From positions 1 to 19,245 of the forward strand of contig JANLPS010000533.1 of assembly GCA_031367385.1 (NCBI GenBank): 19,245 nucleotides of DNA, read 5' to 3'. Below are positions 2 through 19,245 of this stretch, in pieces. The notes beneath the pieces were generated by a model. It had not been told where the DNA came from, did no database searches, and saw nothing but the letters and a program-made list of their open reading frames with translations. Made by a program: the position numbers and the translations under genes. The first letter of the stretch is position 1, and each line of letters opens with the position of its first letter. The DNA is from Archangium sp. GTDB taxonomy: Bacteria; Myxococcota; Myxococcia; Myxococcales; Myxococcaceae.

Positions 2-1330
2 GAGCTCGACAAGGCGGCCGAGTATGCCGAGCGGGTCTTGAAGGAGTACCCGGTCTCGATCTTCGATTTGAAGGTCAAGTACACGCTGGCCAAGCTCTCT
101 GAGCAGATGGCCAACTTCGACAAGTCAGCCAGCATGTACGAGGAGTTCGTGCAGACCTACGACCTCGCCGCCGGCGAAAAGGCGATTGGGTACGCGAACA
201 TCAAAGACCTGCTCAAGAAAGACAAAGAGCTGCGAGAGAAAGAGGCCAAGGCGAACAAGAAGGCCCCGATGGTCACCACCGTCGAGCTGAAGAACCTCAA
301 AGACGACGCCAAGCGCAAAGAGCGTGAGGCGTTGATCGCCGAGTGCACCGACAAGAAAGACAACTGGGTGCAGAACGCGGTCTTCAACGAGGGGTTCTGG
401 TTCGAAGGCGTCGGCAAGCTCGACAAGGCCATCGGCGCGTACACCCGGTACGTGCTGCGGTTCAAAGACGAGAAAGACGCGCCTGACATCGCCTATAACA
501 TCGGGCTCGTGCTCGAAAAGGCTGGCCAGTCGGGCGAGGCGATCAAGCAGTACGACACGTTCTTGGCGAGCTACGCGAAAGACGCGCGGGTCTCAGACGG
601 TCGCCGCCTCGACGCGAAGTACCGCCAGTTCTTGCTGCAACAGAAGCTGAAGAGCCCGCAAGACATGGACAAGCTGGCCAAAGAAATCATCGCCGCGTAC
701 CCGAAGCTCAAAGACGACGAGCAGAAGAGCGACCGGGCGATGTTGGCGGTGGCCCACGCGAAGTTCTACACGCTCGAGCCGCAGTGGAAGGCGTACACCG
801 ACATGAAGTTCAAGAAGGTCGCGACCTTCAAGGCTGATCGCCCGGCCAAAGAGAAGCGGCTGGCTGAAATCGAGAAGGCGTACATCGACGTGCTCAAGGT
901 GGGTAACGCCGAGTACGGCATCGCGGCGCTGACCCGGGTTGGCCTGCTGTACGCCGACTTCGCGTCGAACATCGCCGAGCTGCCAGACCCGCCTGGGCTC
1001 GACGAAGACCAGGTCGGCATGTTCCGCGGCGAGCTCGAGAACCGGTACGTCTTTCCCGTCGAGGAGAAGGCGGTCGAGGCGCTCGAGAAGGCCGTCGCCA
1101 AGAGCTCAGAGCTCTCGATCTACAACGAGTGGACGTTGGCGGCCCAAGACCGGCTCAACAAGTACAAGCCGGGCCTCTACGGCAAAGCCAAAGAGGTGCC
1201 GTTTCGCGGCAGCGAGTTCTTCGCGACCGCGGGGGCTGAGAAGAAGACCGACTTGCCGGTCGAGACGACCGTCGAGAAAACGCCGACGCCTGCGAACGCA
1301 GCTCCGGTGCCTGGCGCGGGGAGCCGGTAA
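2..1330 (+). CDS. gltD: Gliding-motility TPR protein GltD/AgmU, C-terminal part (5' truncated by window)
   Basis: Frame is open from base 2 (ELDKAAEYAERVLKEYP...), so the TTG at 38 is internal. TPR-like helical repeats (e.g. APDIAYNIGLVLEKAGQSGEAIKQY). Lies directly upstream of gltE-like, gltF-like and gltG-like genes, matching the myxobacterial gltD-E-F-G-H order. Stop overlaps the next start (TAATG, 1328-1332). Confidence 0.75.
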   Translation, partial: ELDKAAEYAERVLKEYPVSIFDLKVKYTLAKLSEQMANFDKSASMYEEFVQTYDLAAGEKAIGYANIKDLLKKDKELREKEAKANKKAPMVTTVELKNLKDDAKRKEREALIAECTDKKDNWVQNAVFNEGFWFEGVGKLDKAIGAYTRYVLRFKDEKDAPDIAYNIGLVLEKAGQSGEAIKQYDTFLASYAKDARVSDGRRLDAKYRQFLLQQKLKSPQDMDKLAKEIIAAYPKLKDDEQKSDRAMLAVAHAKFYTLEPQWKAYTDMKFKKVATFKADRPAKEKRLAEIEKAYIDVLKVGNAEYGIAALTRVGLLYADFASNIAELPDPPGLDEDQVGMFRGELENRYVFPVEEKAVEALEKAVAKSSELSIYNEWTLAAQDRLNKYKPGLYGKAKEVPFRGSEFFATAGAEKKTDLPVETTVEKTPTPANAAPVPGAGSR

Positions 1331-2595
1331 TGAAAGCACTTCGATTCGCAGTCTTCGCGTTGATCGCCTGTACGGCTGCCAAAGAAGAGGTCAAGCCCAC
1401 GCAGGTCGCGGTGGTGCAGACCTCGAAAGCCGCCGGCCCGAAAGAGAACTTCGAGCAGGGCGTCGCGGCGTTCGACTCGGGCAACCTCGAGCAGGCGAAG
1501 GTGCTCTTCACCAAGGTGGCCGAGAAGGCGCCGACCAACTTGCAGACCCAGTACAATCTGGGTGTCATCGGCGAGCGGCAGGGCAACCTGCGTGAAGCGC
1601 AGACGCGCTACGAGGCGGCGCACGCGATCGACCCGAAGCACAAGTCGACGTTGCTGAACCTGGGCAAAGTGTACCGCCTGCAAGACAAGTTCACCGAGGC
1701 GATCGCGCTCTACGAAGAGGCGCTCAAAGACCCGGCGAATGAGTACGACGTCGAGCTCAACAACAACCTCACCGTCGCGTACCGGCTGGCGAAGAAGTAC
1801 GACCGCGCCGAGGCGACCGCTCGCAAGGTGCTCTCGCGCACCAAGAACAACGCCGATGCGTACAAGAACCTGTCGCTGATTTACTTCGATCAGGGCAACT
1901 ACCGCTTGGCCGAGTTCATCTCTGCGAACGCGAAGAAGCTCGATGACAAAGACCCGGGCGTCTACAACAACCTGGGCCTGATCTACCTGAAGCTCGATGA
2001 TCGCCGCCTGGCGCTTGGGCAGTTTCAGAAGGCGGTGTCACTGAACAAAGACTTCGCCCCGAGCTTGTTCAACATGGGCGCGATTGCGCTGAGCTACCGC
2101 GACTATGCGAACGCAGAGAAGTCACTGGCGCGCGCGGCTGAGCTCGACCCGACCTCGTACGAGAGCTTCTTGGCGTATGCCTATTCGCTCGACGGGCAGA
2201 AGGGCCGCGACCCGAAGAAGGGCGTGAAGGCCGGCGAGACGTTCGAGAAGGTGCTCGCGCTCAAGGCCGACCAGCCCGAGGCGGTCTGCGGAGCGGCCTG
2301 GGCCTACGCGGCCGACAAAACCGGTTGGGACCGGGCGCTGAGCTTCTTCGACAAGTGCAAGACGATGGCGTCGACCACTGCGCAAGATCAGCAGCTAATC
2401 GACGTCAAGGTGAAGGGCATCGTGGCGATGCAGAAGAGCGGTCAGCCTGCTGCCACGCCTGAGACCAAAGAGAAGCCGAAGGCGGCTCCGACGGGCCCCT
2501 CGATGCTCGACAAGGTGGCAGACGACGCCGCGGCCAAAGAAGCGACGACGCCGGCGCCTGAGACTTCGGCACCGGCGCCTGCGACCAAGCCGTAA
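1330..2595 (+). CDS. gltE: Gliding-motility TPR lipoprotein GltE/AglT
   Basis: Lipoprotein signal MKALRFAVFALIAC (Cys14). Many canonical TPRs (YNLGVIGERQG, LNLGKVYRLQ, YNNLGLIYLKL). Pro/Ala/Lys-rich tail. Translationally coupled to gltD; synteny. Confidence 0.8.
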   Translation: MKALRFAVFALIACTAAKEEVKPTQVAVVQTSKAAGPKENFEQGVAAFDSGNLEQAKVLFTKVAEKAPTNLQTQYNLGVIGERQGNLREAQTRYEAAHAIDPKHKSTLLNLGKVYRLQDKFTEAIALYEEALKDPANEYDVELNNNLTVAYRLAKKYDRAEATARKVLSRTKNNADAYKNLSLIYFDQGNYRLAEFISANAKKLDDKDPGVYNNLGLIYLKLDDRRLALGQFQKAVSLNKDFAPSLFNMGAIALSYRDYANAEKSLARAAELDPTSYESFLAYAYSLDGQKGRDPKKGVKAGETFEKVLALKADQPEAVCGAAWAYAADKTGWDRALSFFDKCKTMASTTAQDQQLIDVKVKGIVAMQKSGQPAATPETKEKPKAAPTGPSMLDKVADDAAAKEATTPAPETSAPAPATKP

Positions 2596-2605
2596 CGTCG
2601 CTTCG

Positions 2606-3775
2606 CTAGTCTTGCGGTTTGACGATGGTCGCTTGCTGCAAGGCGACCTGCGTCTGGGCGAGAATGCGGCCGTTGAGCGTCGCACCGGTGGCGAGGGTGA
2701 CGGCGGTCTTGCACAAGATGATGCCCTCGAAGTGTGAGGTCGACCCCAAGGTCACCTCGCCGCCGATTTGCCAGAAGATGTTCTTCGCCTTGGCCTGGCC
2801 GCCGAGGGTGATGCGCGTGGCCGAGGCCAGCGTCAGGTTGCCGCTGGTCTGAAAGATCCACACGTCGTCGGCGCCGCCGGTGATGGTGACGTCGGTCGGT
2901 ATCGAGATCGTGCTCGTCCACTTGTAGAGGCCGGGCTCGAGGTTCAAGCCGCCGATGGTGCCCGCGCCGAGCTCGGTGTGATCAGGCGTGGGGCGGGTGG
3001 CCGCGTCGGTGTAGGCGTTCTCCATGTTGCCGACCGCGGTGGTCAGGTTGCTCGGCGTCGGCACCGCGAGGTTCGCGGCGTAGAGCTTGCCGGTGACCTG
3101 CGGTGAGGTCGAGAACACGTTGGTGGCGTCGGCGGTCAGCGAGAAGCCGGTCAAGAACGAGGCGGCCGCGGGGCTCACGCCCACGTCACCGGTGATGGCT
3201 GAGGGAGGCACGGTCGAGACCGCGGCCTTGGCCAAGACGACGAAGTTGCCGGCGGCTCCGAGGCTGACCGGGGCAGGGCCCTTCGAGAGCGAGGTGCCGG
3301 TGTTGAAGCTCCAGGTGAAGGCGGTCACCAGTGCCTGCCCGTCGAGCGCCAGGGCGGCGGTCGAGATGGTGGCGGTGTACTCGGTGCTGGCCGTCAGGTT
3401 CGCGGTGGGCACGAAGCGCGCGGTGTTGCCGCTGAACGTGGCGACGCCGGTCACCACCGTGGCGCCTTGCTTCACGCTGAAGGCGCTGATCACCGTGGCG
3501 GCTCGCATTTCTACGCTGAACGTCGCCAGGAGCGTCGCGTTCAAGGGGGCGCCCGCGCCCGTCGGGTACATCGAGACGACCTTCGGAGGGGCTGCTTGGC
3601 CGGCGTCAGCGGTACCGCCACCGCCGCCGCTGCCGCCGCCTCCTCCGTCATTCGAGCCGCCCGTGCCGCCACCCGAGCCAGTGAGGCCGCCGTCGGTGCC
3701 GGTACCGCCCGCACCTCCGCACGACGAGAAGACAGACAACGCCACGAGGCACACTGCCGTTTGAAGCCATTTCAT
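2606..3775 (-). CDS. Lipoprotein with Gly-rich linker, Ig-like (Big_5/SbsA-type) domain and DUF3494 ice-binding domain
   Basis: Lipobox LSVFSSC (Cys19). G-rich linker, aa ~20-60. Ig-like segment PPKVVSMYP...ATFSVEM...ARFVPTANLTASTEYTATIS...FTWSFNT. DUF3494 motifs LGAAGNFVVLAKAAVS, ITGDVGVSP, LTTAVGNMENAYTDAA, LEPGLYKW, VWIFQ, AKNIFWQ, FEGIIL, LNGRILAQT. Confidence 0.9.
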   Translation of the reverse strand: MKWLQTAVCLVALSVFSSCGGAGGTGTDGGLTGSGGGTGGSNDGGGGGSGGGGGTADAGQAAPPKVVSMYPTGAGAPLNATLLATFSVEMRAATVISAFSVKQGATVVTGVATFSGNTARFVPTANLTASTEYTATISTAALALDGQALVTAFTWSFNTGTSLSKGPAPVSLGAAGNFVVLAKAAVSTVPPSAITGDVGVSPAAASFLTGFSLTADATNVFSTSPQVTGKLYAANLAVPTPSNLTTAVGNMENAYTDAATRPTPDHTELGAGTIGGLNLEPGLYKWTSTISIPTDVTITGGADDVWIFQTSGNLTLASATRITLGGQAKAKNIFWQIGGEVTLGSTSHFEGIILCKTAVTLATGATLNGRILAQTQVALQQATIVKPQD

Positions 3776-4017
3776 TTGAGATGCCGATCTGAAAAGGGGG
3801 GGGGCCCGGGGTCGCTCGGTCGAGCAACCCCTCCGCAGGTCTTCAAAGCATGTCTTGAGCCATCGCCTAAGATATCGGTTTCACTCGATTCTCGTTGTTT
3901 CGCCGGTGGCACGTACGCCACGGTTCAACATTTCCACCTCGGCCGAAACGTCTCGGCGCTGTTTCCCGACAGCGAACGGCTGCGGTTTTCGGGTGTCTTC
4001 AGGTGCGTGGGCGTCAG

Positions 4018-4046
4018 GTGACAACGCCTATGAGACCACCTAGTAT
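4018..4046 (+). promoter_or_regulatory. Sigma70-like promoter for gltF-gltG
   Basis: GTGACA (4018-4023), a 17-nt spacer, then TAGTAT (4041-4046). Lies 60 nt upstream of the gltF ATG, which has RBS GGAGG at 4097-4101. Confidence 0.6.
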
Positions 4047-4106
4047 GCGCCGCCCTGTGGGAACCCCACGTGTCTGCTGTTGTCAGACGAATTTACGGAG
4101 GCCGGA

Positions 4107-4379
4107 ATGACGCGTGTATCGCTGATGATTTCGTTGAGCCTGATCGCTGTGATGGCCGCCGGTGCTGCATTCGCCGAAGACAAGGTCGTCAAAGAAGCCG
4201 ACAAGACGGTGTTTCGCAAGAAGACGGTCATCGACTTCACCGATGTCGCGGTCGAGGGCGAGCTCACCAAGCCCGAAGGCAGCTACGCGATCAGCAAGAA
4301 GAAGACGACCTTCAAGACGTTGATCAAGGTTCGCGACAACTTCAACCCCGAGCTCCAGAAGTCAGTCGACAACCTGTGA
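4107..4379 (+). CDS. cglF: Adventurous gliding motility protein GltF/CglF (small secreted protein)
   Basis: ATG 4107 after GGAGG. Signal peptide ending AAFA. Motif RKKTVIDFTDVAVEGELTKPEG and terminal FNPELQKSVDNL resemble CglF. Positioned immediately before gltG. Confidence 0.85.
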   Translation: MTRVSLMISLSLIAVMAAGAAFAEDKVVKEADKTVFRKKTVIDFTDVAVEGELTKPEGSYAISKKKTTFKTLIKVRDNFNPELQKSVDNL

Positions 4380-4441: not shown

Positions 4442-6322
4442 ATGTCGAAAAAGTCGATCACGCTGCAGATCACCGGGCCCCAGGGCCAAGTCTCGGAGTC
4501 GGTCTCTGACCTCGAGAGCATCATCGTTGGCTCAGGCGCTGGCGCGGCGGTGAAGATCGCCGACCCGAAGGTGTCGAACCTCCACTGCCTGCTGAAGGTC
4601 GAGAAGAACGGCAATGTGACGGTGATCGACCTCGGCAGCGAGTCGGGCACGAAGCTCAAAGATCAATCGGTCAAGTCGCCTGAGATCGTCTCGTCGGGTG
4701 ACACCATCACCATCGGTGGCTCGACGGTGAGGGTGTTGATCGGCTCGTCGGCCTCGGCCGTGGCTCCTCCGCCTCCGCCCGCGATGTCGCCCCCGTTTCC
4801 TCCGGCGATTGCGCCCGTGACGATTGCGGCTGCTCCCGTGGCGGCGCCGGCTCCTTCGAAAAAAGCGAAGACCGTGCCCGTGCCTCCGAAAGCGTTGGCT
4901 GGCACCGGCAAGAACGCGGCGATCTTGTTCAACGAGCCGCTGCCGGCCGAGGCGATACCGACCGACACCGAGAAGGTGTTGCAGGTCGCGCTGCTCTGGG
5001 GCGACACCCTGATCAACGTTCAGCACTTCGCTGACGGCGTGCCGGTCACCATCGGTGAGGGCCCGGGCAACAAGTTCAACGTGTTCTCATCGGGCGTCGG
5101 CGACTCGTTCATGCTGGCGGGTTCGCGAGGCGCGAAGGCCGTCGTGAACGTGCCCAGCGAAGCGGGCCTGGTGGTCGGCTCGAAGGGCGACACCCACAAG
5201 ACCAAAGAGCAGCTCAAGGCCGAGGGCAAGCTGAAGGCGGCCGAGGGCGGCTTGCGCGCTGACGCGGTCGAGCTCGGGTTGCACGACCAGGCGCAGGTCT
5301 CGTTCGACAACGTGGCGTTCATCATTCGCTACGTGCGGCCGAGCGCGGCGATCACCGTCAATACGCTCGAAGATCAAGACTTCACCTTCTTCAAGATCGT
5401 CTCGATTTGCGTGATGGCCTTCATCGCGTTGGTGGCGGCGATGATCTTGACGCCGGTCGGAGACGGCAGCGACAGCGACGACCTGTTCTCGAACCCGTCG
5501 AAGTACGTGAAGATGGTGATTCGCCCGCCCGAAGAAAAGAAGGTCAAGAAGTTCTCTGACCTCGCCGGCAAGGCCGAGTCTGAGAAGGCGAAAGAGAAAG
5601 AAGCCAAGTTCGGCAAGCAAGACGCGCAGAAAGACAAAGCCGACCCCTCGAAGAAGGGCGCTCCGGTGGTCGACGCGAACAAGCGAGAAGAAGACCGCAA
5701 GAAGGTCAGCCAGCTGATGGCCGGCATGTTCGGCGGCGGCGCGGCCTCGAGCGTGTTTGGCGCGGGCGGCCTCGGCACCGGCATCAACAACGCGTTGGGC
5801 GGCTTGCAGGGCAACACCGGCGTCGGTGATGCGCAGGGCGTCGGCGGCTTGGGCTCGCGTGGCTCGGGCAGCGGCGGTGGAGGAGCGGGCTTGGGCCTCG
5901 GCGGCCTCGGCACCAAGGGCGGCGGCGGTGGTCGCGGTGGCTACGGCGGGCTCGACCTGGGTGGGCGCGGCAAAGACTCGACCCGCGTCATACCTGGCAA
6001 GACCACGGTGGTTGGCGGCCTCGACCGCGACGTGATCATGAAGGTCGTCAAGCGTCACCAGAACGAGATCAAGTACTGCTACGAGCAAGAGGCGCAGAAG
6101 AACCCGGCCCTGGCTGGCAAGGTCGCCGTCGCGTGGACGATTGACCCCGCCGGTGGCGTGGCCGAGGCGAACGTGAGCGAGTCGTCGATCTCGAACGCGA
6201 ACGTCGAGTCGTGCATCGTGCAGCGCATTCGCCGGTGGAAGTTCCCCGAGCCGTCGGGTGGTGGCGTGGTGAACGTCACCTTCCCGTGGATCTTCAGCTT
6301 GGCGGGCAGCGAAGGCGAATAA
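4442..6322 (+). CDS. gltG: Gliding-motility protein GltG/PglI (FHA - TM - Gly-rich - TonB-C-like AgmX/PglI C-terminal domain)
   Basis: N-terminal FHA-like domain (IIVGSG...VSNLHC...DLGSESGT). Pro/Ala linker. One TM helix (IVSICVMAFIALVAAMIL). Long Gly-rich stalk. C-terminal GGLDRDVIMKVVKRH...YCYE...VESCI...WKFPEP...VTFPWIF domain. Confidence 0.88.
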   Translation: MSKKSITLQITGPQGQVSESVSDLESIIVGSGAGAAVKIADPKVSNLHCLLKVEKNGNVTVIDLGSESGTKLKDQSVKSPEIVSSGDTITIGGSTVRVLIGSSASAVAPPPPPAMSPPFPPAIAPVTIAAAPVAAPAPSKKAKTVPVPPKALAGTGKNAAILFNEPLPAEAIPTDTEKVLQVALLWGDTLINVQHFADGVPVTIGEGPGNKFNVFSSGVGDSFMLAGSRGAKAVVNVPSEAGLVVGSKGDTHKTKEQLKAEGKLKAAEGGLRADAVELGLHDQAQVSFDNVAFIIRYVRPSAAITVNTLEDQDFTFFKIVSICVMAFIALVAAMILTPVGDGSDSDDLFSNPSKYVKMVIRPPEEKKVKKFSDLAGKAESEKAKEKEAKFGKQDAQKDKADPSKKGAPVVDANKREEDRKKVSQLMAGMFGGGAASSVFGAGGLGTGINNALGGLQGNTGVGDAQGVGGLGSRGSGSGGGGAGLGLGGLGTKGGGGGRGGYGGLDLGGRGKDSTRVIPGKTTVVGGLDRDVIMKVVKRHQNEIKYCYEQEAQKNPALAGKVAVAWTIDPAGGVAEANVSESSISNANVESCIVQRIRRWKFPEPSGGGVVNVTFPWIFSLAGSEGE

Positions 6323-6472: not shown

Positions 6473-7078
6473 GTGCGGAAGCTTGCTGCTCTGATGATTG
6501 TGCTTCTCGCGCCGGCTGCCTTTGCAGCAACGCCGTCAGAAGGTGTTCCGCTCCAGGTTCGCCGCGGCTTCTTCACTGAAACCGACATTGGTGGCTTCTT
6601 CACGCTGGGCGGTGACAACGCGTATTCGAACCTGCAGACGTACCTGCAGTTGGGCATTGGCTACCAATTCACGGTGAACGACGGCGCGGGCATCGTGCCG
6701 ATTGGGTTTCACGTCGCGATTGGTTCGAACGCGCAGAACTGCTTCGCGGGGCTCAAGCCGAATGGTGACTGCAGCCAGGCCGACAACTTCACGATGACGT
6801 TCTTGAGCCTCACGGGTGGCTACCTGGCTCGCGTGGTCGAGCGCTTCTACCTGGGCGCGAAGTTGATCGCCGGGTACACGCTGCTCGATCCCGCTCCGGT
6901 GTACACGACGGGTGGCGCGCCGGTGAACGGCGGCGTCAACCTGGGCGCAGCGTTGAGCATGGAATACGCCACCAATATGGACCACTTCTCGGTCGGCATC
7001 GACGTGGCCTTTCGCTTCGTGATCGGCCCGAACATACCCAGCTTTGCGTTTTACCCGCGCGTTCAATACACGTTCTAA
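6473..7078 (+). CDS. cglE: Adventurous gliding motility outer-membrane beta-barrel protein GltH/CglE
   Basis: Signal peptide ending AAFA. Amphipathic beta-strands (RRGFFTETDIGGFFTLGG, YLQLGIGYQF). C-terminal beta-signal YPRVQYTF. Directly downstream of gltG. Confidence 0.8.
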   Translation: MRKLAALMIVLLAPAAFAATPSEGVPLQVRRGFFTETDIGGFFTLGGDNAYSNLQTYLQLGIGYQFTVNDGAGIVPIGFHVAIGSNAQNCFAGLKPNGDCSQADNFTMTFLSLTGGYLARVVERFYLGAKLIAGYTLLDPAPVYTTGGAPVNGGVNLGAALSMEYATNMDHFSVGIDVAFRFVIGPNIPSFAFYPRVQYTF

Positions 7079-7109: not shown

Positions 7110-7134
7110 AAGCCCCGCAGTGACGGGGCTTTTT
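7110..7134 (+). terminator. Rho-independent terminator after gltH/cglE
   Basis: AAGCCCCG-CAGTGA-CGGGGCTT-TTT: a GC-rich stem running into a T5 tract, 31 nt after the stop. Confidence 0.7.
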
Positions 7135-7155
7135 CATGCTCAAGAGGTACTTCGC

Positions 7156-8187
7156 ATGGTGTCTGACCCGTATGGCCTCAACCGCGTGGTGGGTGAGAAG
7201 GGCGTGCTGCCGCAGCGCGCGAAGGTGCTCGACCCGTCGCTGCCGCTGCGTGACGGAGAGCTGTTGATCGACGTCGAGAGCCTCAACATCGACGCCGCGT
7301 CGTTCAAGCAGCTCAAAGAGGCCGCTGGCGGTGATGGCGCGAAGATCATCGAGGCGATTCGCGGCATCGTTGCCCAACGCGGCAAGATGCAGAACCCGGT
7401 CACCGGCTCGGGGGGCATGTTGATCGGCCGCGTACGCGAGGTTTCATCATCGCACCCGGCCGCGGGCCAGGTGAAGCCGGGTGACCGAATCGCGACCCTG
7501 GTGAGCCTGACCCTGACGCCGCTGGTGTTGACCGAGGTGAAGGGCCTGAAGGCGGAGATCGACCGGGTCGACGTGGCCGGGCACGCGATTCTCTTCGCGT
7601 CGGGCATCTTCGCGAAGTTGCCCAACGACCTGGCCGACACACTGTCACTGGCGGCGCTCGATGTGGCGGGGGCTCCGGCGTTGGTGGCGAGGTACGTGAA
7701 GCCGGGCATGACGGTGGTGATGCTTGGGGCCGGCAAGAGTGGCGCGCTCTGCCTGGCCCAGGCGCGGGAGCTGATGAAGGGGCAGGGCAGGTTGATCGCG
7801 CTCGACATCTCGCCCAAGGCGCTCGACGCGTTGAAGGCGATCGGCCTGTGCGACGAGACGGTGGTGTGTGACGCGACGCAGGGGGTCGAGGTGATGGCCA
7901 AGGTGGCTGCCGTGACCGGGGGTGGCCTGGCCGACCTGGTGGTCAACGTGGCCTCGGTGCCGAACACCGAGATGGCGAGCATCTTGAGCGTGCGCAACGG
8001 TGGGTCGGTCATCTTTTTCTCGATGGCGACCAGCTTCACGGCGGCGGCGTTGGGCGCCGAGGGCGTCGGCAAGGACGTGACGATGATCGTCGGGAACGGC
8101 TACGTTCCTGGGCATGCCGAGCTGACGTTGGAGCTGCTGCGGCGCAATGAGAAACTGCGGGCCCTGTTTGCCGAGAGGTACGTGTGA
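7156..8187 (+). CDS. kdd: L-erythro-3,5-diaminohexanoate dehydrogenase
   Basis: Family motifs PYGLNRV...GVLPQRA, LLIDVESLNIDAASF, RGKMQNPVTGSGGMLIG, ATLVSLTLTPL, LDVAGAPA, GAGKSG, FFSMATSFTAAALGAEGVGKDV, GNGY. ATG 7156 follows GAGG at 7144-7147. The upstream GTG at 7120 lies inside the terminator. Confidence 0.9.
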   Translation: MVSDPYGLNRVVGEKGVLPQRAKVLDPSLPLRDGELLIDVESLNIDAASFKQLKEAAGGDGAKIIEAIRGIVAQRGKMQNPVTGSGGMLIGRVREVSSSHPAAGQVKPGDRIATLVSLTLTPLVLTEVKGLKAEIDRVDVAGHAILFASGIFAKLPNDLADTLSLAALDVAGAPALVARYVKPGMTVVMLGAGKSGALCLAQARELMKGQGRLIALDISPKALDALKAIGLCDETVVCDATQGVEVMAKVAAVTGGGLADLVVNVASVPNTEMASILSVRNGGSVIFFSMATSFTAAALGAEGVGKDVTMIVGNGYVPGHAELTLELLRRNEKLRALFAERYV

Positions 8188-8531
8188 CCTTCGCGACGTT
8201 GATGGTGCTGGCACTGACGCTCGACGGGGGCCAGAGCGGCGGCCTCGATCAGGAGCTGATCAAACGCGAGATTCGGACGCACCATGAGAAGACCTGGGCT
8301 TGCTACGAGCGGTACCTTGGGCCCGAATCGGTCACTGACTTTCGCGTGGCGTTGATCGTCTCGATTGGCCCCTCGGGCCGGGTCGAGTCGGCTGCGGCCA
8401 AGTCGTCGATTGCGCACCCCGACATCGAGTCGTGCCTGATCGCCGAGGCGAAGACCTGGCGCTTCCCCAAGTCGAAGAGCGGGGCGGCCAACGTGCGATA
8501 CCCATTCATCTTCAAGGCTGATGAAGACTGA
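8184..8531 (+). CDS. Small secreted stand-alone AgmX/PglI C-terminal (TonB-C-like) domain protein
   Basis: Short hydrophobic N-terminus, then GGLDQELI...ACYE...IESCL...WRFP...VRYPFIF, which aligns by eye with the GltG C-terminus in this window. GTGA overlap with the kdd stop. Confidence 0.8.
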   Translation: MTFATLMVLALTLDGGQSGGLDQELIKREIRTHHEKTWACYERYLGPESVTDFRVALIVSIGPSGRVESAAAKSSIAHPDIESCLIAEAKTWRFPKSKSGAANVRYPFIFKADED

Positions 8532-9981
8532 GCTCGGGCTCTCGCTCGCCGAGGCCCTGGCGCGCTTTCAAACGCATCGGAGTGCCCAGCTCACGAGGGT
8601 GATTACCGAGCTCGGCGCCGCCGCGGTCGAGGGGTTCGTCGAGCCGCACGCTCGAACCAACGTCGAATTTCACGGGGCCTGGGTCGGGTTCGCGCAGAAC
8701 GCCCAGACCCGCAGCTGGGCGCTCGAGCGGCTCATCACCAAGCTTTTTCCTCCAGACGACAAGGTGAAGTGCGTGGTGGCCCGCTTCGAGGTGCTCCAGG
8801 CGCTCGAGGCCGACCCGCGCATCGCCAAGGCGGTTCTCGATTTGTTCGAGCTCAAGTCGCCGGTCACGGGGTTTCGCATTGCGCACGAGGCGATGGCTCG
8901 GTTGATCGCCAAGCACGCTGACGACGAGACGGCGGAGGTGGTGAACGCGTCACCCGGTCTGCCCGAGGAGGTCAAGCGGCTGGCTCTGCCGGCGCCGGTC
9001 GCGCTGCCGGCGAAGTGGGCGTTGCCGAAGGCCTCAAAACCCGATGCCGACGGGGCTGCGCTGTGGGCCGCGGTGTACGCGAGGCTCGACGATGACGCTC
9101 CGAGAGCCGTGTTGGCCGACTGGCTTCAAGAGCGAAACGACCCGCGTGGCGAGCTCATCGCGCTGCAGCTGATCGAGCAGGGCGGCACGGCGAGCGAGCA
9201 GCAGGTCTCACGGGCTCAGGCGCTGACGACCCGATACGGCTCGAGCTGGCTGGGGGCGCTGCGGTCGGCGGTGCAGCGCGCGCAATTTCACAGGGGGTTC
9301 GTGCAGTCGATCGAGCTTGACGGCTCTTTCAGCCCCGACGACGCGACGAGCGACCCCCAGCTGGCGACGGTTGAAGTGCTCACCGGCAAGTCGAATGGCC
9401 ACATTGCCCAATTTCTGAAGAGCCCCGTGGTGCGCAGCGCCCTTCGAGAAATCGTCGTCGAAGACGATGCGGTCTGGGCCCAGGTGCCGTTCTGTACCGG
9501 CCTGACCGGGCTGCAGTGCACGAGCTGGTCACGGCATAGCGTCGAGGAGCGCTTCTTGAACCAGGTGCTGCCTTTTCTCGAGGGCACTCCGGCGATCACG
9601 CGGGTGGGCGCGAGACTCGACATGCTTCGCCAATTTTCGCCGGCGCTGAAGGGCCGAATCACGTCGTTTCGGGCGGTCGAGCCGCTGCAGAGTGCGCTGG
9701 CGGTGTGGCATGCATTGCCGAAGCTGACGCGGCTGACCGCGGGGCACTCAGGGCGCGTTGAGCTGCATCGGGCGGGGCGCCTGGAGCACGTGCGCATCAA
9801 CGGGCGCAGCGTGATGCTCGGGGTCGAAGAGGAGCTGGCGCTGGTGCCGAAGTCGATTTCGCGGGTCGAAGTGGTCGGCAACAAGGCGCTCACCAAGCGG
9901 TTGTCAAAGCAGCTGGGTGACCGTTTCGAGGTGGTTGACCGGCTGTCACCGTCGGGGTTGGTGACTGGGGTGAAGGGCTGA
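8521..9981 (+). CDS. TIGR02996 domain-containing protein
   Basis: Internal motif LWAAVYARLDDDAPRAVLADWLQERNDPRGELIALQL (~9061-9171), followed by WLGAL...FHRGFV, typical of TIGR02996 proteins. Start overlaps the upstream gene by 11 nt. Confidence 0.8.
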   Translation: MKTELGLSLAEALARFQTHRSAQLTRVITELGAAAVEGFVEPHARTNVEFHGAWVGFAQNAQTRSWALERLITKLFPPDDKVKCVVARFEVLQALEADPRIAKAVLDLFELKSPVTGFRIAHEAMARLIAKHADDETAEVVNASPGLPEEVKRLALPAPVALPAKWALPKASKPDADGAALWAAVYARLDDDAPRAVLADWLQERNDPRGELIALQLIEQGGTASEQQVSRAQALTTRYGSSWLGALRSAVQRAQFHRGFVQSIELDGSFSPDDATSDPQLATVEVLTGKSNGHIAQFLKSPVVRSALREIVVEDDAVWAQVPFCTGLTGLQCTSWSRHSVEERFLNQVLPFLEGTPAITRVGARLDMLRQFSPALKGRITSFRAVEPLQSALAVWHALPKLTRLTAGHSGRVELHRAGRLEHVRINGRSVMLGVEEELALVPKSISRVEVVGNKALTKRLSKQLGDRFEVVDRLSPSGLVTGVKG

Positions 9982-9988
9982 GTTGTTT

Positions 9989-10387
9989 CTAGATGGTGAA
10001 GCGATCAGTCACTCCGGCGGTGCGCTGCAAAATCGCGGTGAGGCCGATGAGCTGATCGACCTTCGGCTCGACCTGTGGCGGCGTCAGACCCAGCGACGCC
10101 ATCGAGCCCGTGCAGGCGAACAGCGTTGCCTGCCCTGAATCGCGCACGATGTTGAGCAGCTGCCGGAGCGTGGGCACGCCACGCAGCTCCATCGTCGCGT
10201 TGACTTCGTCGCGATCGAGGTCGGGCACGTCGAGCTTGTCGGCGACGAGGCGATCGAGCGCCCACCAGAAGAAATAGAGCTCGACCTTGCGACCCAAGGC
10301 GGCGGCCGCGGCGGCGATTGAAACACCTTGGTGCACGGCGTCGTACTCACCGCGATGCAGAAACAGACAGACCGGTTGCGGCGCCAT
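9989..10387 (-). CDS. DsrE/DsrF/DrsH-like family protein
   Basis: 132 aa. Pattern SIAAAAAALGRKVELYFFWWAL...PTLRQLL...LFACTGSM...GL with a conserved Cys, typical of DsrE-like proteins. Confidence 0.75.
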   Translation of the reverse strand: MAPQPVCLFLHRGEYDAVHQGVSIAAAAAALGRKVELYFFWWALDRLVADKLDVPDLDRDEVNATMELRGVPTLRQLLNIVRDSGQATLFACTGSMASLGLTPPQVEPKVDQLIGLTAILQRTAGVTDRFTI

Positions 10388-10586
10388 GGCGGCCCCTATA
10401 CCCGACGAAGCGCGCTAATCGCTCGCATGCACTGAACCGGGAGGTTCACGATGACCCCGGAGGCGTAATTCACGTCTGGTTTCAAGAGGTTGTATTGCCC
10501 CACCTGGGTCAAGAAACGCTCGTCAGTCAAATCGAATGAAACCCGCTGGAACCGTTGAGAACATGTCTGATACCTGGCCCCTCCCG

Positions 10587-11648
10587 ATGTCAGACGAAAT
10601 GACCGCTCGTCGCAAAGACGCGCACCTTGACCTCTGTGCGACAGAAGAAGTGGCGCCGGCCGAAAATTCGACGTTGTTCGAGAACGTTCGGCTCGTTCAC
10701 TGCGCGTTGCCTGAGCTGTCGTTCGACGAGCTCGACCTGTCGACCTCGATCTTCGGCAAGACGCTCAAGGCGCCGATTCTGATTACGGGCATGACCGGCG
10801 GCACCGAGCGCGCGGGGCAGATCAACCGAGACTTGGCCCAGGTGGCCGAAGAGTTCGGCGTCGCGTTCGGCGTCGGCAGCCAACGGGCGATGGCCGAGCG
10901 CCCCGAGCTGGGCAAGACCTTCGCGGTTCGCGCCCAGGCGCCGAGCACGGTGATCATCGGCAACATCGGCTTGGTGCAAGCCGTGAAGATGGGCGTCGAC
11001 CGCGCCCGGGCGTTGGCCGACGACCTCGGTGCAGACGCGCTCGCGGTGCACTTGAACCCGGGCCAAGAATTGACCCAACCCGAGGGCGATCGCGATTTTC
11101 GTGGCGGCTTCGAGGTGCTCGGCGCCCTTTCGAAGGCGCTGGGAGACCGCCTGCTGGTCAAAGAGACCGGCTGCGGCATTTCACCGGCCGTGGCGAGGCG
11201 TCTGGTCGACATCGGCGTTAGAAACATCGACGTGTCGGGTCTGGGCGGTACTTCATGGGTTCGGGTCGAAGAGCTCCGCGCCGAGGGGCCGGCCCGCGAA
11301 GTGGGGGCGCAGTTCTCGAGCTGGGGCATACCCACCGCCGCGGCGATCGCTTCGGTACGGCGGGTGACGGGCCCAGGCGTGAAGCTGATCGCTTCAGGGG
11401 GCATGCGCACCGGGCTCGACGTGGCGAAGGCGCTGACGCTGGGAGCAGATCTTGGCGGCATGGCGCTCCCGCTGTTTCGCGCGCACCAAACCGACGGCAT
11501 CGAGGGTGCTCGGCGGGCGCTGAAGGTCGTGGTGGCCGCACTGAAGCAAGCGATGTTGCTCACCGGCAGCCGTACCTGCGCCGAGCTGAAGACCAAGCCG
11601 CGCGTCGTGACTGGTGACTTGAAAGATTGGCTCAGCGCACTCGCGTGA
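10587..11648 (+). CDS. fni: Type 2 (FMN-dependent) isopentenyl-diphosphate delta-isomerase
   Basis: Motifs RRKDAHL, ITGMTGG, GVGSQRA, IGNIG, VHLNPGQELTQPEGD, VKETGCGIS, GLGGTSW, WGIPT, ASGGMRTGLD. Start placed at ATG 10587 (MSDEMTARRK); 10563 and 10599 are alternatives. Confidence 0.95.
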   Translation: MSDEMTARRKDAHLDLCATEEVAPAENSTLFENVRLVHCALPELSFDELDLSTSIFGKTLKAPILITGMTGGTERAGQINRDLAQVAEEFGVAFGVGSQRAMAERPELGKTFAVRAQAPSTVIIGNIGLVQAVKMGVDRARALADDLGADALAVHLNPGQELTQPEGDRDFRGGFEVLGALSKALGDRLLVKETGCGISPAVARRLVDIGVRNIDVSGLGGTSWVRVEELRAEGPAREVGAQFSSWGIPTAAAIASVRRVTGPGVKLIASGGMRTGLDVAKALTLGADLGGMALPLFRAHQTDGIEGARRALKVVVAALKQAMLLTGSRTCAELKTKPRVVTGDLKDWLSALA

Positions 11649-11682
11649 CGAGCAGTTGGTTCGAAGTGAGATGGAGAGGCAC

Positions 11683-13008
11683 ATGGCTGAAATGGTGACG
11701 TCGAGGTTGTCGGGTTTTCACAAGCTGCCAATGGCTGACCGGTTGAGCACGGTCTCGCGCATGTTCAAGCTCAGCATCGAAGAGACCAGCGCGATGAATG
11801 GCTTTGGCGGGTTGTCGAACGACACCGCCAACACGATGATCGAGAACGCGGTGGGGGTGTTCAAGCTGCCCCTCGGCTTGGGTCTCAACCTGCAGATCAA
11901 CGGGCGCGACTACGTGGTGCCAATGGCGGTCGAAGAGCCGTCGGTGATTGCCGCGGTCAGCTTCGCCGCCAAAATCGCCCGCGAGGGCGGAGGCTTCGTC
12001 GCCGAGGCCGACGACCCGATCATGATTGGCCAGGTGCAGGTCACCAACTTTGGCGACCCGACCGAGGCTGCGCAGAAGCTCACCGCTCACAAAGAGCAGC
12101 TGCTGGCGCTTGCGAACAGCTTTCACCCGTCGATGATCGTGCGGGGCGGCGGGGCGCGAGACATCGAAGTGCGGGTGCTCCCGGCTCCCGAGGGGCCGAA
12201 GGGTGAGCCGATTCTGGTGCTCCACCTGTTCATCGACACCCAAGACGCGATGGGCGCGAACCTGATCAACACGATGTGCGAAGGCGTCGCACCGTTGGTC
12301 GAGCAGATCACCGGCGGCAAGGTGTTCTTGCGCATCTTGTCGAACCTGGCCGACCGCCGGTTGGCGCGCGCGACCTGCCGCATACCGGTGCAGTCGTTGG
12401 CCGATTTCGACATGACCGGCGAGTCGATCGCCGAGGGCATCGTACAGGCGAGCCGCTTCGCCTCGGCCGACCCGTACCGCGCCGCGACCCACAACAAGGG
12501 CATCATGAATGGCGTCGACTCGGTGGCCATCGCCACCGGGCAAGACTGGCGCGCGATCGAAGCCGGGGCGCACGCCTTCGCCTGCCGCGACGGTCAGTAC
12601 CGCCCGCTGTCGACCTGGCGCCTCGAAGAGGGCCACTTGGTGGGCCGCATCGAGCTGCCACTGGCGTTGGGCATGGTCGGTGGGCCGATCAAGATTCACC
12701 CCCAGGTGCAGGCGGCGCTGAAGATCTTGCGCGTGACCTCGGCGCGCGAGCTGTCGCTGGTGATGGTCTCGGTCGGTTTGGCGCAGAACTTCGCCGCGGT
12801 TCGGGCGCTCGGTTCGGTGGGTATTCAAAAGGGCCACATGGCGCTGCACGCCCGCTGCGTCGCGGTCACTGCCGGTGCTCGCGGCCTGTGGGTCGAGAAG
12901 GTCGCCAACGCGTTGGTCACTGCAGGCCACGTGAAGGTCGAGAAAGCCAAGGAGCTGCTCGCGTCGATGATGCGCGAAGAAGCCCTCGCTGGGCAGCCAG
13001 TGCCGTAA
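11683..13008 (+). CDS. mvaA: Class II hydroxymethylglutaryl-CoA reductase
   Basis: Motifs SRLSGFHKL, MIENAVG, PMAVEEPSVIAA, DAMGAN, LRILSNL, RAATHNKGIMNG, DWRAIEAGAH, GIQKGHMALH. RBS GGAGAGG at 11673-11679 precedes ATG 11683. Confidence 0.95.
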   Translation: MAEMVTSRLSGFHKLPMADRLSTVSRMFKLSIEETSAMNGFGGLSNDTANTMIENAVGVFKLPLGLGLNLQINGRDYVVPMAVEEPSVIAAVSFAAKIAREGGGFVAEADDPIMIGQVQVTNFGDPTEAAQKLTAHKEQLLALANSFHPSMIVRGGGARDIEVRVLPAPEGPKGEPILVLHLFIDTQDAMGANLINTMCEGVAPLVEQITGGKVFLRILSNLADRRLARATCRIPVQSLADFDMTGESIAEGIVQASRFASADPYRAATHNKGIMNGVDSVAIATGQDWRAIEAGAHAFACRDGQYRPLSTWRLEEGHLVGRIELPLALGMVGGPIKIHPQVQAALKILRVTSARELSLVMVSVGLAQNFAAVRALGSVGIQKGHMALHARCVAVTAGARGLWVEKVANALVTAGHVKVEKAKELLASMMREEALAGQPVP

Positions 13009-13018
13009 GAAGCGACCA

Positions 13019-13930
13019 ATGGCGAATCAGATGACGGCTTTTGGGCCCGGCAAGGTGATCTTGTTGGGTGAGCATGGCGCGGTGTACGGGCAGCCAGCAT
13101 TGGCGGCTCCGATTTCGAGGGGCGTGCGCGCGTTCGCGGTGCCGGCCGAGTCGCTCGAGATCGACCTGCCGGAAGACCTGAGCGAGGCGCAGACCGAGGC
13201 GCTCGAGCGGGCTTTTTCTCGGGCGGCCAAGCTGACCGGTCACCCGAAGTTTTCGATCTCGTTCGAGAGTGACCTGCCGGTATCGATGGGGCTTGGCTCA
13301 TCGGGTGCGCTGAGCGTCGCGGTGACGCGGGTGCTGTTGCAGGCCAAGCACGGCGGCAAGGTGCCCGACGCCAAGCTGGTCGAGAAGATCGCGTTCGCGC
13401 TCGAGAAAGAATTTCACGGCACGCCGTCAGGTGTCGACCACACCACCAGCGCCCGCGGCACGATGGTGCTCTACACCAAGGGCGTGGTCAAAGAGGTGAA
13501 GGCCCGCAGGCCGGTGAAGGTGTTGATCGCGATGGTCGGTGCGCGCACGGCGACCAAGGTGACGGTGGGTGCGTTGCGAGAACGCCAGGCCCGTTGGGCG
13601 TCGCGGTACCGCAGGGTCTTCGAAGACATCGGGCAGCTCGCGCGCGAGGGGGCCGTGGCTGCGGCGAAGGGCGACCTCGAGCTGCTGGGCGACCTGATGA
13701 ACATGAATCAGGGCTTCTTGAACGGCCTCGGCCTGTCGAGCGAGCGGCTCGAGGCGATGGTCTACAAGCTGCGCGCGGCGGGAGCGCTGGGGGCCAAGCT
13801 CACAGGGGCTGGCGGAGACGGCGGCGCGGTGATTGCGCTGTTCAAGGAACCGGAGCCTCTCGTGAAGCGGTTGCGCGAAGAAGGCATCGACTGTTTCGCG
13901 AGCCAATTGGCTGGGCCGGCAGCGCTGTAG
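13019..13930 (+). CDS. mvk: Mevalonate kinase
   Basis: GHMP motifs PGKVILLGEHGAVYG, PVSMGLGSSGA, HGTPSGVD, GAKLTGAGGDGG. Operon context. Confidence 0.92.
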   Translation: MANQMTAFGPGKVILLGEHGAVYGQPALAAPISRGVRAFAVPAESLEIDLPEDLSEAQTEALERAFSRAAKLTGHPKFSISFESDLPVSMGLGSSGALSVAVTRVLLQAKHGGKVPDAKLVEKIAFALEKEFHGTPSGVDHTTSARGTMVLYTKGVVKEVKARRPVKVLIAMVGARTATKVTVGALRERQARWASRYRRVFEDIGQLAREGAVAAAKGDLELLGDLMNMNQGFLNGLGLSSERLEAMVYKLRAAGALGAKLTGAGGDGGAVIALFKEPEPLVKRLREEGIDCFASQLAGPAAL

Positions 13931-14008
13931 TCGAGGGTCAATCGCAGGGCGGTCTCTCGCGACCCGAGGCTGGTGCGCCCTCGGCCGCGAAAAGCGTTGG
14001 AGTCAACG

Positions 14009-14017
14009 TGCTACCCT
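14009..14017 (+). promoter_or_regulatory. Possible extended -10 element for a leaderless transcript
   Basis: TG-c-TACCCT ends 7 nt before ATG 14025. No Shine-Dalgarno sequence is visible. Confidence 0.35.
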
Positions 14018-14024
14018 GCCCCCG

Positions 14025-14471
14025 ATGCGAGGCCCCATTCTTCTTTCGGTGATGCTGCTCGCGGCCCCCGCGAGTGCGTCGCTGAGCATCGGCTTCGACG
14101 TCGGGGCCGGGTACTGGGGCGCTCCCACGGGTGACACGTTTCCCGGCTATGCGCAGTTCGACGCGCACCTGTCGGTTCGAAACGTCTTCAACAAGCTCAT
14201 CTCGCTGGGGGTACGGCCGGGTTTCATGGTGAACGTGGCGCCCGGCATCTCGTACGGGGTGCCGGTTGACCTGCAGTTTCGGGTGCGGTTTCTCGTCTTG
14301 TACGCCGAGGCGCTGGGAGGTGTGGCGTACCTGATTCGCGACCCTCAGCCCTGGCGGCCACACGGAGCGCTTGGCGTGGGCCTGGTGGTGTTGGGTCTAA
14401 CCCTGGGCCTCGAGGCCGGCTACCTGATGAACGGTTTTCACGGCGGGTTGCGCATCGGCTTCAGCATTTAG
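14025..14471 (+). CDS. Hypothetical small outer-membrane beta-barrel protein
   Basis: Signal peptide ending PASA. Repeated Gly/aromatic amphipathic strands (IGFDVGAGYW, LYAEALGGVAY, LTLGLEAGY, GGLRIGFSI). Fills the mvk-mvaD gap on the operon strand. Confidence 0.65.
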   Translation: MRGPILLSVMLLAAPASASLSIGFDVGAGYWGAPTGDTFPGYAQFDAHLSVRNVFNKLISLGVRPGFMVNVAPGISYGVPVDLQFRVRFLVLYAEALGGVAYLIRDPQPWRPHGALGVGLVVLGLTLGLEAGYLMNGFHGGLRIGFSI

Positions 14472-14495
14472 CGCGAATGTGATGAAAGCCGCCGC

Positions 14496-15491
14496 ATGGA
14501 GAAAGCCACTGCGGTCGCGCACCCCAACATTGCGCTGGTGAAGTACTGGGGCAAACGCGACGAGCGACTGATTTTGCCGCACCAATCGAGCCTCTCGGCG
14601 ACTCTGGGCCCGCTGGCGGTCACCACCACCGTCGAGTTTCTGGGTCGCGGCGTGAAGAAAGACGAGGTCGAGCTCAACGGGCGCATCGCCGAGGGCACCG
14701 AGCGGCAGCGAGTGGTGGAGGTGCTCAAGCTGATACGCGCCAGCTCGAAGACGTTGGGCGGCGCTCGGGTGGTCTCGCGAGGCGATTTTCCGGCATCAGC
14801 GGGGTTGGCGTCGAGCGCGGCTGGCTTCGCGGCCTTGGCGGTGGCAGGGCGGGCAGCGGCCGGGCAGAAGCGCGACACCCGTGCGGAGTCGATCTTGGCC
14901 CGGCAGGGCAGTGGGTCGGCCTGCCGCAGCATCGAAGGTGGCTTCGTTCGGTGGAACCGCGGTCGTCGCGCTGATGGCAAAGACAGCTTCGCCGAGCAGC
15001 TGTTCGATGAATCGCACTGGCCAGACCTTCGCCTGCTGGTGGGCATGATCAGCCGCGAAGAAAAAGAAGTGAAGTCGCGTGACGGCATGCGCTCGACGGT
15101 CGAGAGCTCGCCGTACTACCCGGCGTGGGCGAAAGACGCCGAGCGCGAATGCAAGGCGATTGTCGCGGCGATCAAGCGGCGAGATCTCGAGGTGGTGGGC
15201 GAGACCGCCGAGCGAAACGCGTGGCGCATGCATGCCAGCGCGCTGGGCGCGAACCCGCCGCTCTGTTACCTGAAGCCCGAGACCTTGAGCGTGATTCAGG
15301 CCCTGCGTGATGAGCGCAAGCGCGGGGTCGGCATCTGGTTCACGCTCGATGCTGGGCCAAACCCGGTGTTGCTGACGACGCGAGCTGATGAGGCGCGAGC
15401 GGTCGAGGTGGTGCAGGCCTTTGGAGCGAAAGACGTGGTTCGCTGTCAGCCCGGGGGAGACGCACAGGTGACCTCCGAGCACCTTTTTTAG
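14496..15491 (+). CDS. mvaD: Diphosphomevalonate decarboxylase
   Basis: Motifs HPNIALVKYWGK, FPASAGLASSAAGFAAL, GSGSACRS, KSRDGM, FTLDAGPN. Confidence 0.93.
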   Translation: MEKATAVAHPNIALVKYWGKRDERLILPHQSSLSATLGPLAVTTTVEFLGRGVKKDEVELNGRIAEGTERQRVVEVLKLIRASSKTLGGARVVSRGDFPASAGLASSAAGFAALAVAGRAAAGQKRDTRAESILARQGSGSACRSIEGGFVRWNRGRRADGKDSFAEQLFDESHWPDLRLLVGMISREEKEVKSRDGMRSTVESSPYYPAWAKDAERECKAIVAAIKRRDLEVVGETAERNAWRMHASALGANPPLCYLKPETLSVIQALRDERKRGVGIWFTLDAGPNPVLLTTRADEARAVEVVQAFGAKDVVRCQPGGDAQVTSEHLF

Positions 15492-18500: not shown

Positions 18501-19245
18501 CTGCCTGGGCGCGCTCGCGGGCGGTCACGTCGACGTACTGGGTGACAAAGCCCTGGGCTTCACCCGCTTTGTCGCCGACCGGGCTGCCGTCGATCTCGAT
18601 GCTGAGCAGATGGCCACTGCGATGACGCAGCTCGACCAGCTCGCGAAAGGGCTCGCGCCGCAGAAAGGCCAGGCGAATGCGCTCGAGCCCCGCGGAGTCT
18701 TTTCTCGGGCCGCCGAGCGTGCGGCTGTCGACTCCGATGAGCTCGGCCGATTGGTAGCCGAGCAGCTCGGAGAAAGCGGGGTTGACCCACTGAAAAGAAC
18801 CGCGAGGGTCGAGGGAGGCGATGGCCAATGGCATCTGGCGCGCGATGACCGCGAGGCGCTCGGCCTCATACGCTTGGCGAGCTCCGCGTTGGCGCATCGC
18901 CCTGACCGCGACCAACCCGAGCACCGCCAGAAGCTCCGCCGCGATGCTCCAGAGGGTTCGCTCGAGCAGAGAATCAGACCTCGCTCTGATGGCGTCATCG
19001 ACTGCCTCGAGTGCGCTCAGGGCTGGCTCGAGGTTCACCGGTTGATGCCCCGATGCCGAAGTGAGCTGGGTCAGCGCTCGTTCGGCACCGTTGAGCCGAG
19101 TCTGAAGCGTGAGCCCGTCGTGCCACACCGAGAGGGTGTCGTGTTCAGAGGTGCGCAGAACGAGCTGAGTTGCCCACAGCTCGTTCTTGGCGTCGGCGAG
19201 CGCCGCTGAGCGCTTGGCTGCCTGGTCTTCGGTTTCGCCTTCGGG
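15595..19245 (-). CDS. Hybrid sensor histidine kinase/response regulator (TM - 3 PAS - GAF - HisKA - HATPase - degenerate REC - REC), 5' truncated by window
   Basis: Frame stays open from 19128 to the window end. [20 protein letters not shown]. Three PAS/PAC segments. GAF ([19 protein letters not shown]). H-box [19 protein letters not shown]-box [29 protein letters not shown]. Terminal [13 protein letters not shown]...[11 protein letters not shown]...SKP. Confidence 0.95.

Follow-up and report, generated by a model that had tools for sequence, protein, structure and literature searches.

The gap between nfsE and nfsF in an uncultured Archangium holds an intact, self-contained gene on the opposite strand for a lipoprotein of the DUF3494 ice-binding family, and this gene is probably a passenger in a part of the nfs cluster that likely tolerates insertion. 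The window analyzed here (the whole stretch of DNA, 19,245 nt) is the entire contig C430 of a draft genome of 7.97 Mb in 562 contigs. The initial annotation had taken the flanking genes to be gltE and gltF of the gliding machinery and suggested an ice adhesin possibly coupled to gliding, offering as a fallback a neutral insertion at a transcription-unit boundary. It is the fallback that fits best (if the boundary, which is only a likely one, is granted). In relatives the slot is empty or filled by unrelated genes. The ice-binding gene likely has no role in gliding.

Identity of the flanking cluster

The forward strand of the window begins with the C-terminal part of an nfsD-like TPR gene (2..1330), whose N-terminal part lies on contig C343, and continues with an nfsE-like TPR lipoprotein gene (1330..2595; 421 aa; a GltE paralogue), an nfsF-like gene (4107..4379; 90 aa; a GltF/CglF paralogue), an nfsG-like FHA/TonB-C gene (4442..6322; 626 aa; a GltG paralogue), and an nfsH-like outer-membrane barrel gene of the CglE/GltH family (6473..7078; 201 aa). 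The assignment of the flanking genes to gliding did not survive comparison with the Glt models: E scores 107 bits on NF033758 (cut-off 225), F 66.7 bits on NF033764 (cut-off 90), and G 333 bits on NF033760 (cut-off 650). The genes of the nfs-type locus L183 likewise fall under the Glt cut-offs for E, F, and G, its GltG paralogue scoring 339 bits on NF033760. H passes its model, NF033755, with 168 bits (cut-off 70), but the nfsH-type gene of L183 (213 bits) and the second copy on contig C218 also clear the cut-off of this GltH/CglE model.

The GltE equivalog of this genome lies on contig C548 (552 bits), within a D-E-F-G run whose gltE-gltF gap is empty and 146 nt long. Contig C218 carries the C-terminus of GltG and a second CglE-family gene, while equivalogs of GltC (916 bits) and GltJ are found on contigs C166 and C510, respectively. 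In the window, kdd follows nfsH, and there is no gltI or gltJ behind H.

Contig C343, which overlaps the start of the window by 20 nt, carries nfsA-, nfsB-, nfsC-, and nfsD-like genes, so that C343 and C430 together give eight genes, A-B-C-D-E-F-G-H, in one run. This is the nfs order, found likewise in loci L183-L185 and described for Nfs, the paralogue of Glt (PMC3858216, cited in part). The open reading frames of the L183 run encode 294, 442, 520, 1262 (first start), 481, 94, 683, and 241 (first start) amino acids. The published lengths of NfsA-H are 294, 442, 512, 1219, 499, 96, 682, and 200, and those of A, B, C, E, F, and G agree with the L183 run. The window is the contig that best matches E, F, G, and H of L183, and it comes second, behind C343, for the terminal part of D; the nfsF-like protein is 82% identical to its L183 counterpart over 65 aa. 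The window E protein behaves as a single-copy orthologue: in a tally that takes in genome G148, 174 of the 208 family genomes contain a single match at E <= 1e-60. In a tree of 14 rows, it grouped with the nfs-type rows (100/99), separate from the GltE rows (100/100) and also from a paralogue on contig C487; the tree has a deep join between long branches, which leaves these three groups unaffected.

Judged by gene content, sizes, and reciprocal matches to the nfs-type locus, with the link to Myxococcus xanthus made via published lengths, the cluster is nfs (G3), a paralogue of glt. Gene content and sizes rule out G4 or G5; contigs C487 and C15, further Glt paralogue clusters of this genome, fit G4 and G5, respectively, by size only. 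NF033763, tried as a model for CglB, turned out to be TraB.

In M. xanthus, the paralogous clusters G3 (nfsA-H), G4, and G5 cannot substitute for glt, and their disruption leaves motility intact (PMC3169522, cited in part). There nfs is induced during sporulation and required for viable spores but dispensable for gliding, which its deletion does not affect (parts of PMC2875238 and PMC3169522), and with the cluster identified as nfs, the suggested coupling to gliding loses its support. Since nfs may be kept by non-fruiting genera (PMC13689315, cited in part), its role in this uncultured organism can only be inferred.

Several other genes of the window deserve mention. The gene after nfsH, kdd (7120-8187), encodes 3,5-diaminohexanoate dehydrogenase and occupies the same position in 27 of 41 related loci. 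After it (8184-9981) come genes for a stand-alone AgmX/PglI C-terminal domain protein of 115 aa and a TIGR02996-domain protein. A mevalonate run (10536-15491) encodes type 2 IPP isomerase, class II HMG-CoA reductase, mevalonate kinase, and diphosphomevalonate decarboxylase; no phosphomevalonate kinase was recognized in the window, where 13938-14471 has no family match. The reverse strand carries a DsrE-like gene (9989-10387) and one for a PAS/GAF hybrid histidine kinase (15595-19128).

The ice-binding lipoprotein gene

The interval 2596-4106, whose coordinates the initial annotation gave exactly and which ends just ahead of the ATG at 4107, contains an intact open reading frame of 389 aa on the reverse strand (2606-3775). 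The initial annotation described an intact lipoprotein gene with a lipobox, a Gly linker, an Ig-like part, and a distal DUF3494 domain, antisense and 10 nt from the stop of its upstream neighbor, and the reading frame, Pfam, the Cys19 pattern, and the structural model all bear it out. The predicted signal peptide (residues 1-18) has a lipobox-type pattern whose last residue, Cys19, is nearly invariant across an alignment of 40 homologues. A linker of 42 residues (20-61), 57% of them Gly, leads to a Big_5 domain (62-159) and then to the DUF3494 domain (180-384). Both domains, for which the annotation had proposed a check, score above their Pfam cut-offs: Big_5 reaches 52 bits against a threshold of 23.6, and Ice_binding (PF11999) reaches 234.9 bits against a gathering cut-off of 28.7. 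An Ig-like stalk was claimed as well; an Ig-like domain is indeed present, but as one Big_5 domain only and not in tandem.

The stop codon (2606-2608) converges on the nfsE-like stop at 2595, leaving a gap of 10 nt (2596..2605). No terminator-like site was found between the two stops, so antisense overlap is possible.

An AlphaFold2 model of the lipoprotein, built on a 40-sequence alignment, has a mean pLDDT of 81, with residues 1-59 disordered. By this model, the DUF3494 domain has the beta-solenoid fold of IBP-1: Foldseek aligns it to 4NU3 with a TM of 0.96, an rmsd of 1.2 A, and 60% identity, and to the SfIBP_1 structure 6BG8 with a TM of 0.85 and 29% identity. The rungs of the b-face (NLTLASAT, EVTLGSTS, AVTLATGA, and QVALQQAT), rich in Thr/Ala/Gly/Ser, align with the rungs of FfIBP, one of them identical; the FfIBP motif is T-A/G-X-T/N (PMC5334608, cited in part). 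This alignment makes it likely that the lipoprotein binds ice. On the NCBIfam model IBP_CFB, the protein scores 251 bits, under the cut-off of 400.

The gene bears no sign of foreign base composition, its GC3 being native-like (0.89 vs 0.86), and no insertion scar (target duplication or IS end) was seen among the 20 direct-repeat families and 25 inverted pairs shown. A weak, putative sigma-54-like site (GG-N10-GC; 3847..3862, reverse strand) precedes the start codon by about 70 nt. Two such sites occur in the window vs 1.48 expected, which is not above chance. Such a site precedes two of the three DUF3494 genes of this genome, as compared with 42 of 2159 background ORFs; within the family, however, just 2 of 21 genes have one. 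The stretch 3847-3862 reads GSRHAL, as does the N-terminal extension of the homologue P0124.

The nfsE-nfsF slot in relatives

The slot was surveyed across relatives, as the initial annotation had proposed, in two sets: 41 loci of 60-84% identity (the 12 weaker of 53 being left out as non-orthologous) and 43 stretches that overlap the first set. F was placed in 78 of the 85 rows (window included), which gave 58 distinct loci apart from the window; of the seven rows lacking F, six stop at a contig end. None of the 58 loci has a DUF3494 gene in the slot. The gap measures 103-214 nt in 43 of them and is bounded at less than 570 nt in another 10, nfsE is frameshifted in one, and other, unrelated genes occupy the slot in four (L054, L060, L062, and L063), a finding that speaks against a functional link to gliding. 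The closest locus, L036 (84%), runs to a contig end, but a gap of 133 nt can be read from its last 156 nt, with a start codon and the promoter-like motifs also seen in the window. As no relative examined has the gene in this place, it is likely a lineage-specific passenger.

In L054, L060, and L062, the gap holds an extra plus-strand gene for an AgmX/PglI tail (a GltG-like C-terminus), which in L054 ends at the promoter-like motif. In L063, an ArsC/Spx-like gene (8366-8719, reverse strand) lies antisense in the slot, with the same geometry as in the window. L202 (G154:C53:20500-23700) has other genes for 3 kb after nfsE, the first of which resembles by eye an FHA/sigma-54 activator, and no nfsF within these 3 kb; its nfs cluster is split or carries a larger insert. 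In some genomes (L189, L215), the slot coincides with the end of a draft contig.

Two putative promoter motifs lie upstream of nfsF on the forward strand of the window: a sigma-70-like motif, GTGACA-N17-TAGTAT (4018..4046), and the motif GGAAC-N16-TGTC (4060..4084), which we take to be ECF-sigma-like. Of 59 distinct nfsF upstream regions, 48 contain the pattern GGAAC-N15-18-YGTY (shuffles: mean 0.5, maximum 3) and 19 the sigma-70-like pair (shuffle mean 0.06), with the proviso that the patterns were written from the same sequences in which they were then counted and that related loci are not independent. The regions considered are 4018-4084 of the window and those upstream of F in L037-L076 and L186-L225 (GGAAC-N16/17-YGTC; GTGACA-N17-TAGTAT); L183 has no GGAAC motif at this spacing. 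In the window, both motifs are intact and lie beyond the inserted gene, on the nfsF side, which likely allows the gap to tolerate insertion. The motifs suggest an internal nfs promoter in the gap, one unmapped in the cited papers. In M. xanthus, nfsA-H behave as a single transcription unit, with RT-PCR crossing nfsE-nfsF (PMC2875238, cited in part), which leaves a transcription-unit boundary in the gap unproven.

DUF3494 genes in the family

Genes of the DUF3494 family are patchy yet frequent in this myxobacterial family: PF11999 is present in 57 of 208 genomes, a tally that includes genome G148, and 133 such genes occur in the 55 genomes other than G148 and the one studied here. They lie at loci unrelated to nfs or glt, which again argues against a functional link to gliding. 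A Glt- or Nfs-like neighbor was found at none of 104 DUF3494 loci (24 genomic and 80 metagenomic, with flanks of 1.5-4 kb and the F query left out). The shortest same-contig distance of a DUF3494 gene is 76 kb to nfsE, placed in 52 genomes, and 49 kb to gltE, placed in 46 genomes among the matches listed; short contigs limit both tests.

The genome itself has two further DUF3494 lipoprotein-like genes (G000:C222:6244-7140 and G000:C428:41419-43275), 50% and 38% identical to the window gene in the domain; in the one on C428, three stretches resemble Big_5, and a sigma-54-like site lies 85 nt upstream. The one genome of the same genus (87% complete) has no match.

Lipoproteins that combine Big_5 and DUF3494 are common and auto-annotated. 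Of 7992 candidates scored, 3112 are relatives at E <= 1e-30; among the matches listed, PF13205 and PF11999 are both present in 119 of 120. The matches listed include proteins named Myxococcus, Archangium, Hyalangium, and Aggregicoccus sp. 17bor-14, a strain number that belongs to Simulacricoccus ruber in PMC13689315 (cited in part), where the title of a reference makes this species a soil myxobacterium. The closest homologues are P0002 (89%), P0007 (85%), and P0124 (84%). Homologues with a genomic place are at most 66% identical, and the insertion may be common to a small unsampled clade. The protein cluster of P0001 has as its representative P0122, an unrelated-looking sequence of 54 aa, probably a clustering artefact.

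A literature search with little coverage of subscription journals found no published account of DUF3494 in myxobacteria. In prokaryotes, DUF3494 is combined most often with Ig-like domains and its genomic contexts are diverse, and the authors of that survey found little support for tethering as its main role (PMC9957290, cited in part). DUF3494 is also found in non-frozen settings (PMC12337378, cited in part).

Interpretation and alternatives

The passenger reading could work as follows. The nfsE-nfsF gap would tolerate insertion if nfsF-G-H keep a conserved promoter of their own downstream of the insertion point, and the ice-binding gene may have brought its own promoter along. Anchored by lipid at Cys19, the protein would use its short flexible linker and single Ig-like domain to hold out the predicted FfIBP-like beta-solenoid. 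The displayed solenoid would then bind ice (leading to recrystallization inhibition or weak tethering) or perhaps another surface, as in other proteins of this widespread family.

One might instead blame the assembly, whose fragmentation (562 contigs) and an arrangement unique among relatives would be expected if a chimera had put a foreign gene into the cluster. However, contigs of a second study, P2, span each junction without a single difference (X5 at the left, 2250-3014; X6 at the right, 3760-4281), as does one 2414-nt piece in X1 for both, and a chimera, practically inconceivable in the face of these contigs, was rejected. The datasets that carry the window DNA are labeled sediment or freshwater sediment metagenome, labels that give no sign of a cold habitat, and no RNA dataset is among those listed. 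Run X7 (share 0.06), which gave short pieces of 90-97% on the flanks and no joint, was left out of the evidence on habitat and empty slots. Coupling of an ice adhesin to the Agl-Glt gliding machine, by which the cells would move on ice, would make sense of a lipoprotein with an ice-binding-type head in a genome that has a gliding gene set, but its sole positional argument fails, the cluster being nfs rather than glt. Moreover, M. xanthus nfs mutants glide normally (PMC3169522 and PMC2875238, in the parts cited), and no gltE-DUF3494 pair lies within 48 kb in 46 genomes, among the matches listed. This idea, rejected once the GltE equivalog was found on C548, is extremely improbable. Hardly better are the chances that the lipoprotein serves the Nfs machine as cargo or adhesin and is displayed by NfsA-B-C-H on resting cells or spores, protecting them from ice. 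The analogy is with the outer-membrane platform of Glt (GltA-B-C-H-K), which recruits the lipoprotein adhesin CglB (PMC9946355, cited in part), Nfs being a paralogue of Glt (PMC3858216, likewise) and the ice-binding gene sitting inside nfs. It sits there on the opposite strand, however, and the two further DUF3494 genes of the genome are located elsewhere. Of the 208 family genomes, 174 have an nfsE orthologue and only 57 have DUF3494; in none of the 52 testable genomes are the two linked.

Somewhat more probable, though still unlikely, is a noncontiguous operon, in which the nfs transcript would continue past nfsE, cross the antisense ice-binding gene, and enter nfsF. Induction of nfs would then silence the ice gene and the reverse, pitting a vegetative ice tether against a spore coat. 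A gene of opposite strand inside a co-oriented run fits the definition (PMC11034616, cited in part), nfsA-H form one transcript in M. xanthus (PMC2875238, in the part cited), and the stops lie 10 nt apart with no terminator-like site between them. Against this, the arrangement occurs in one genome and in none of the 58 other distinct loci, the promoter-like motifs before nfsF make read-through unnecessary, and an unrelated antisense gene (ArsC/Spx-like) occupies the slot of L063. The bolder proposal, that the nfs operon captured the ice-binding gene in this way and that antisense RNA from nfsE read-through turns the ice tether off while the resting coat is built and on in active cells, has a slightly smaller chance still of being right. 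If true, such an antisense switch would be the first link of myxobacterial differentiation with ice binding. If the gene is instead a passenger in the gap, its position is a one-genome accident in a paralogue not used for gliding, of little significance as it stands. Two side results are of modest use: the nfsE-nfsF gap takes up foreign genes and carries conserved promoter-like motifs, and DUF3494 genes are frequent, if patchy, in this family.

Comparison with known systems

The likeness to Nfs, the machinery for spore-coat assembly in M. xanthus (G3, nfsA-H, MXAN_3371-3378), lies in the eight-gene A-H run, matching sizes, and reciprocal best matches to the nfs-type locus; the E-F gap, however, is 1511 nt here, with an antisense gene, and 207 nt in M. 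xanthus. With Glt G1 (gltD-H), the window shares the paralogous gene order D-E-F-G-H, which explains why it was first read as a gliding cluster, but the orthologous glt cluster of this genome is on C548/C218 and its E-F gap is 146 nt. CglB, the adhesin of Glt, is a von Willebrand A-domain lipoprotein of unrelated domain content (PMC9946355, in the part cited). The noncontiguous operons of Staphylococcus aureus (PMC11034616, in the part cited) also have an opposite-strand gene amid a co-oriented run, whereas the arrangement here is unconserved and its read-through transcript hypothetical.

The DUF3494/IBP-1 proteins (FfIBP and its chimera, PDB 4NU2 and 4NU3; TisAFP; LeIBP) resemble the lipoprotein in the discontinuous beta-solenoid with a bracing helix that the model predicts; in the lipoprotein, however, DUF3494 is preceded by a Gly linker and a Big_5 domain. 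SfIBP_1 of Shewanella frigidimarina (6BG8; Vance et al. 2018) is a proposed ice adhesin, as cited in PMC9957290. The lipoprotein has in common with it a DUF3494 domain with an Ig-like tether and an export signal, the latter features being predicted here. SfIBP_1, however, has tandem Ig-like repeats, and with its one Ig-like domain the lipoprotein would have a short reach.
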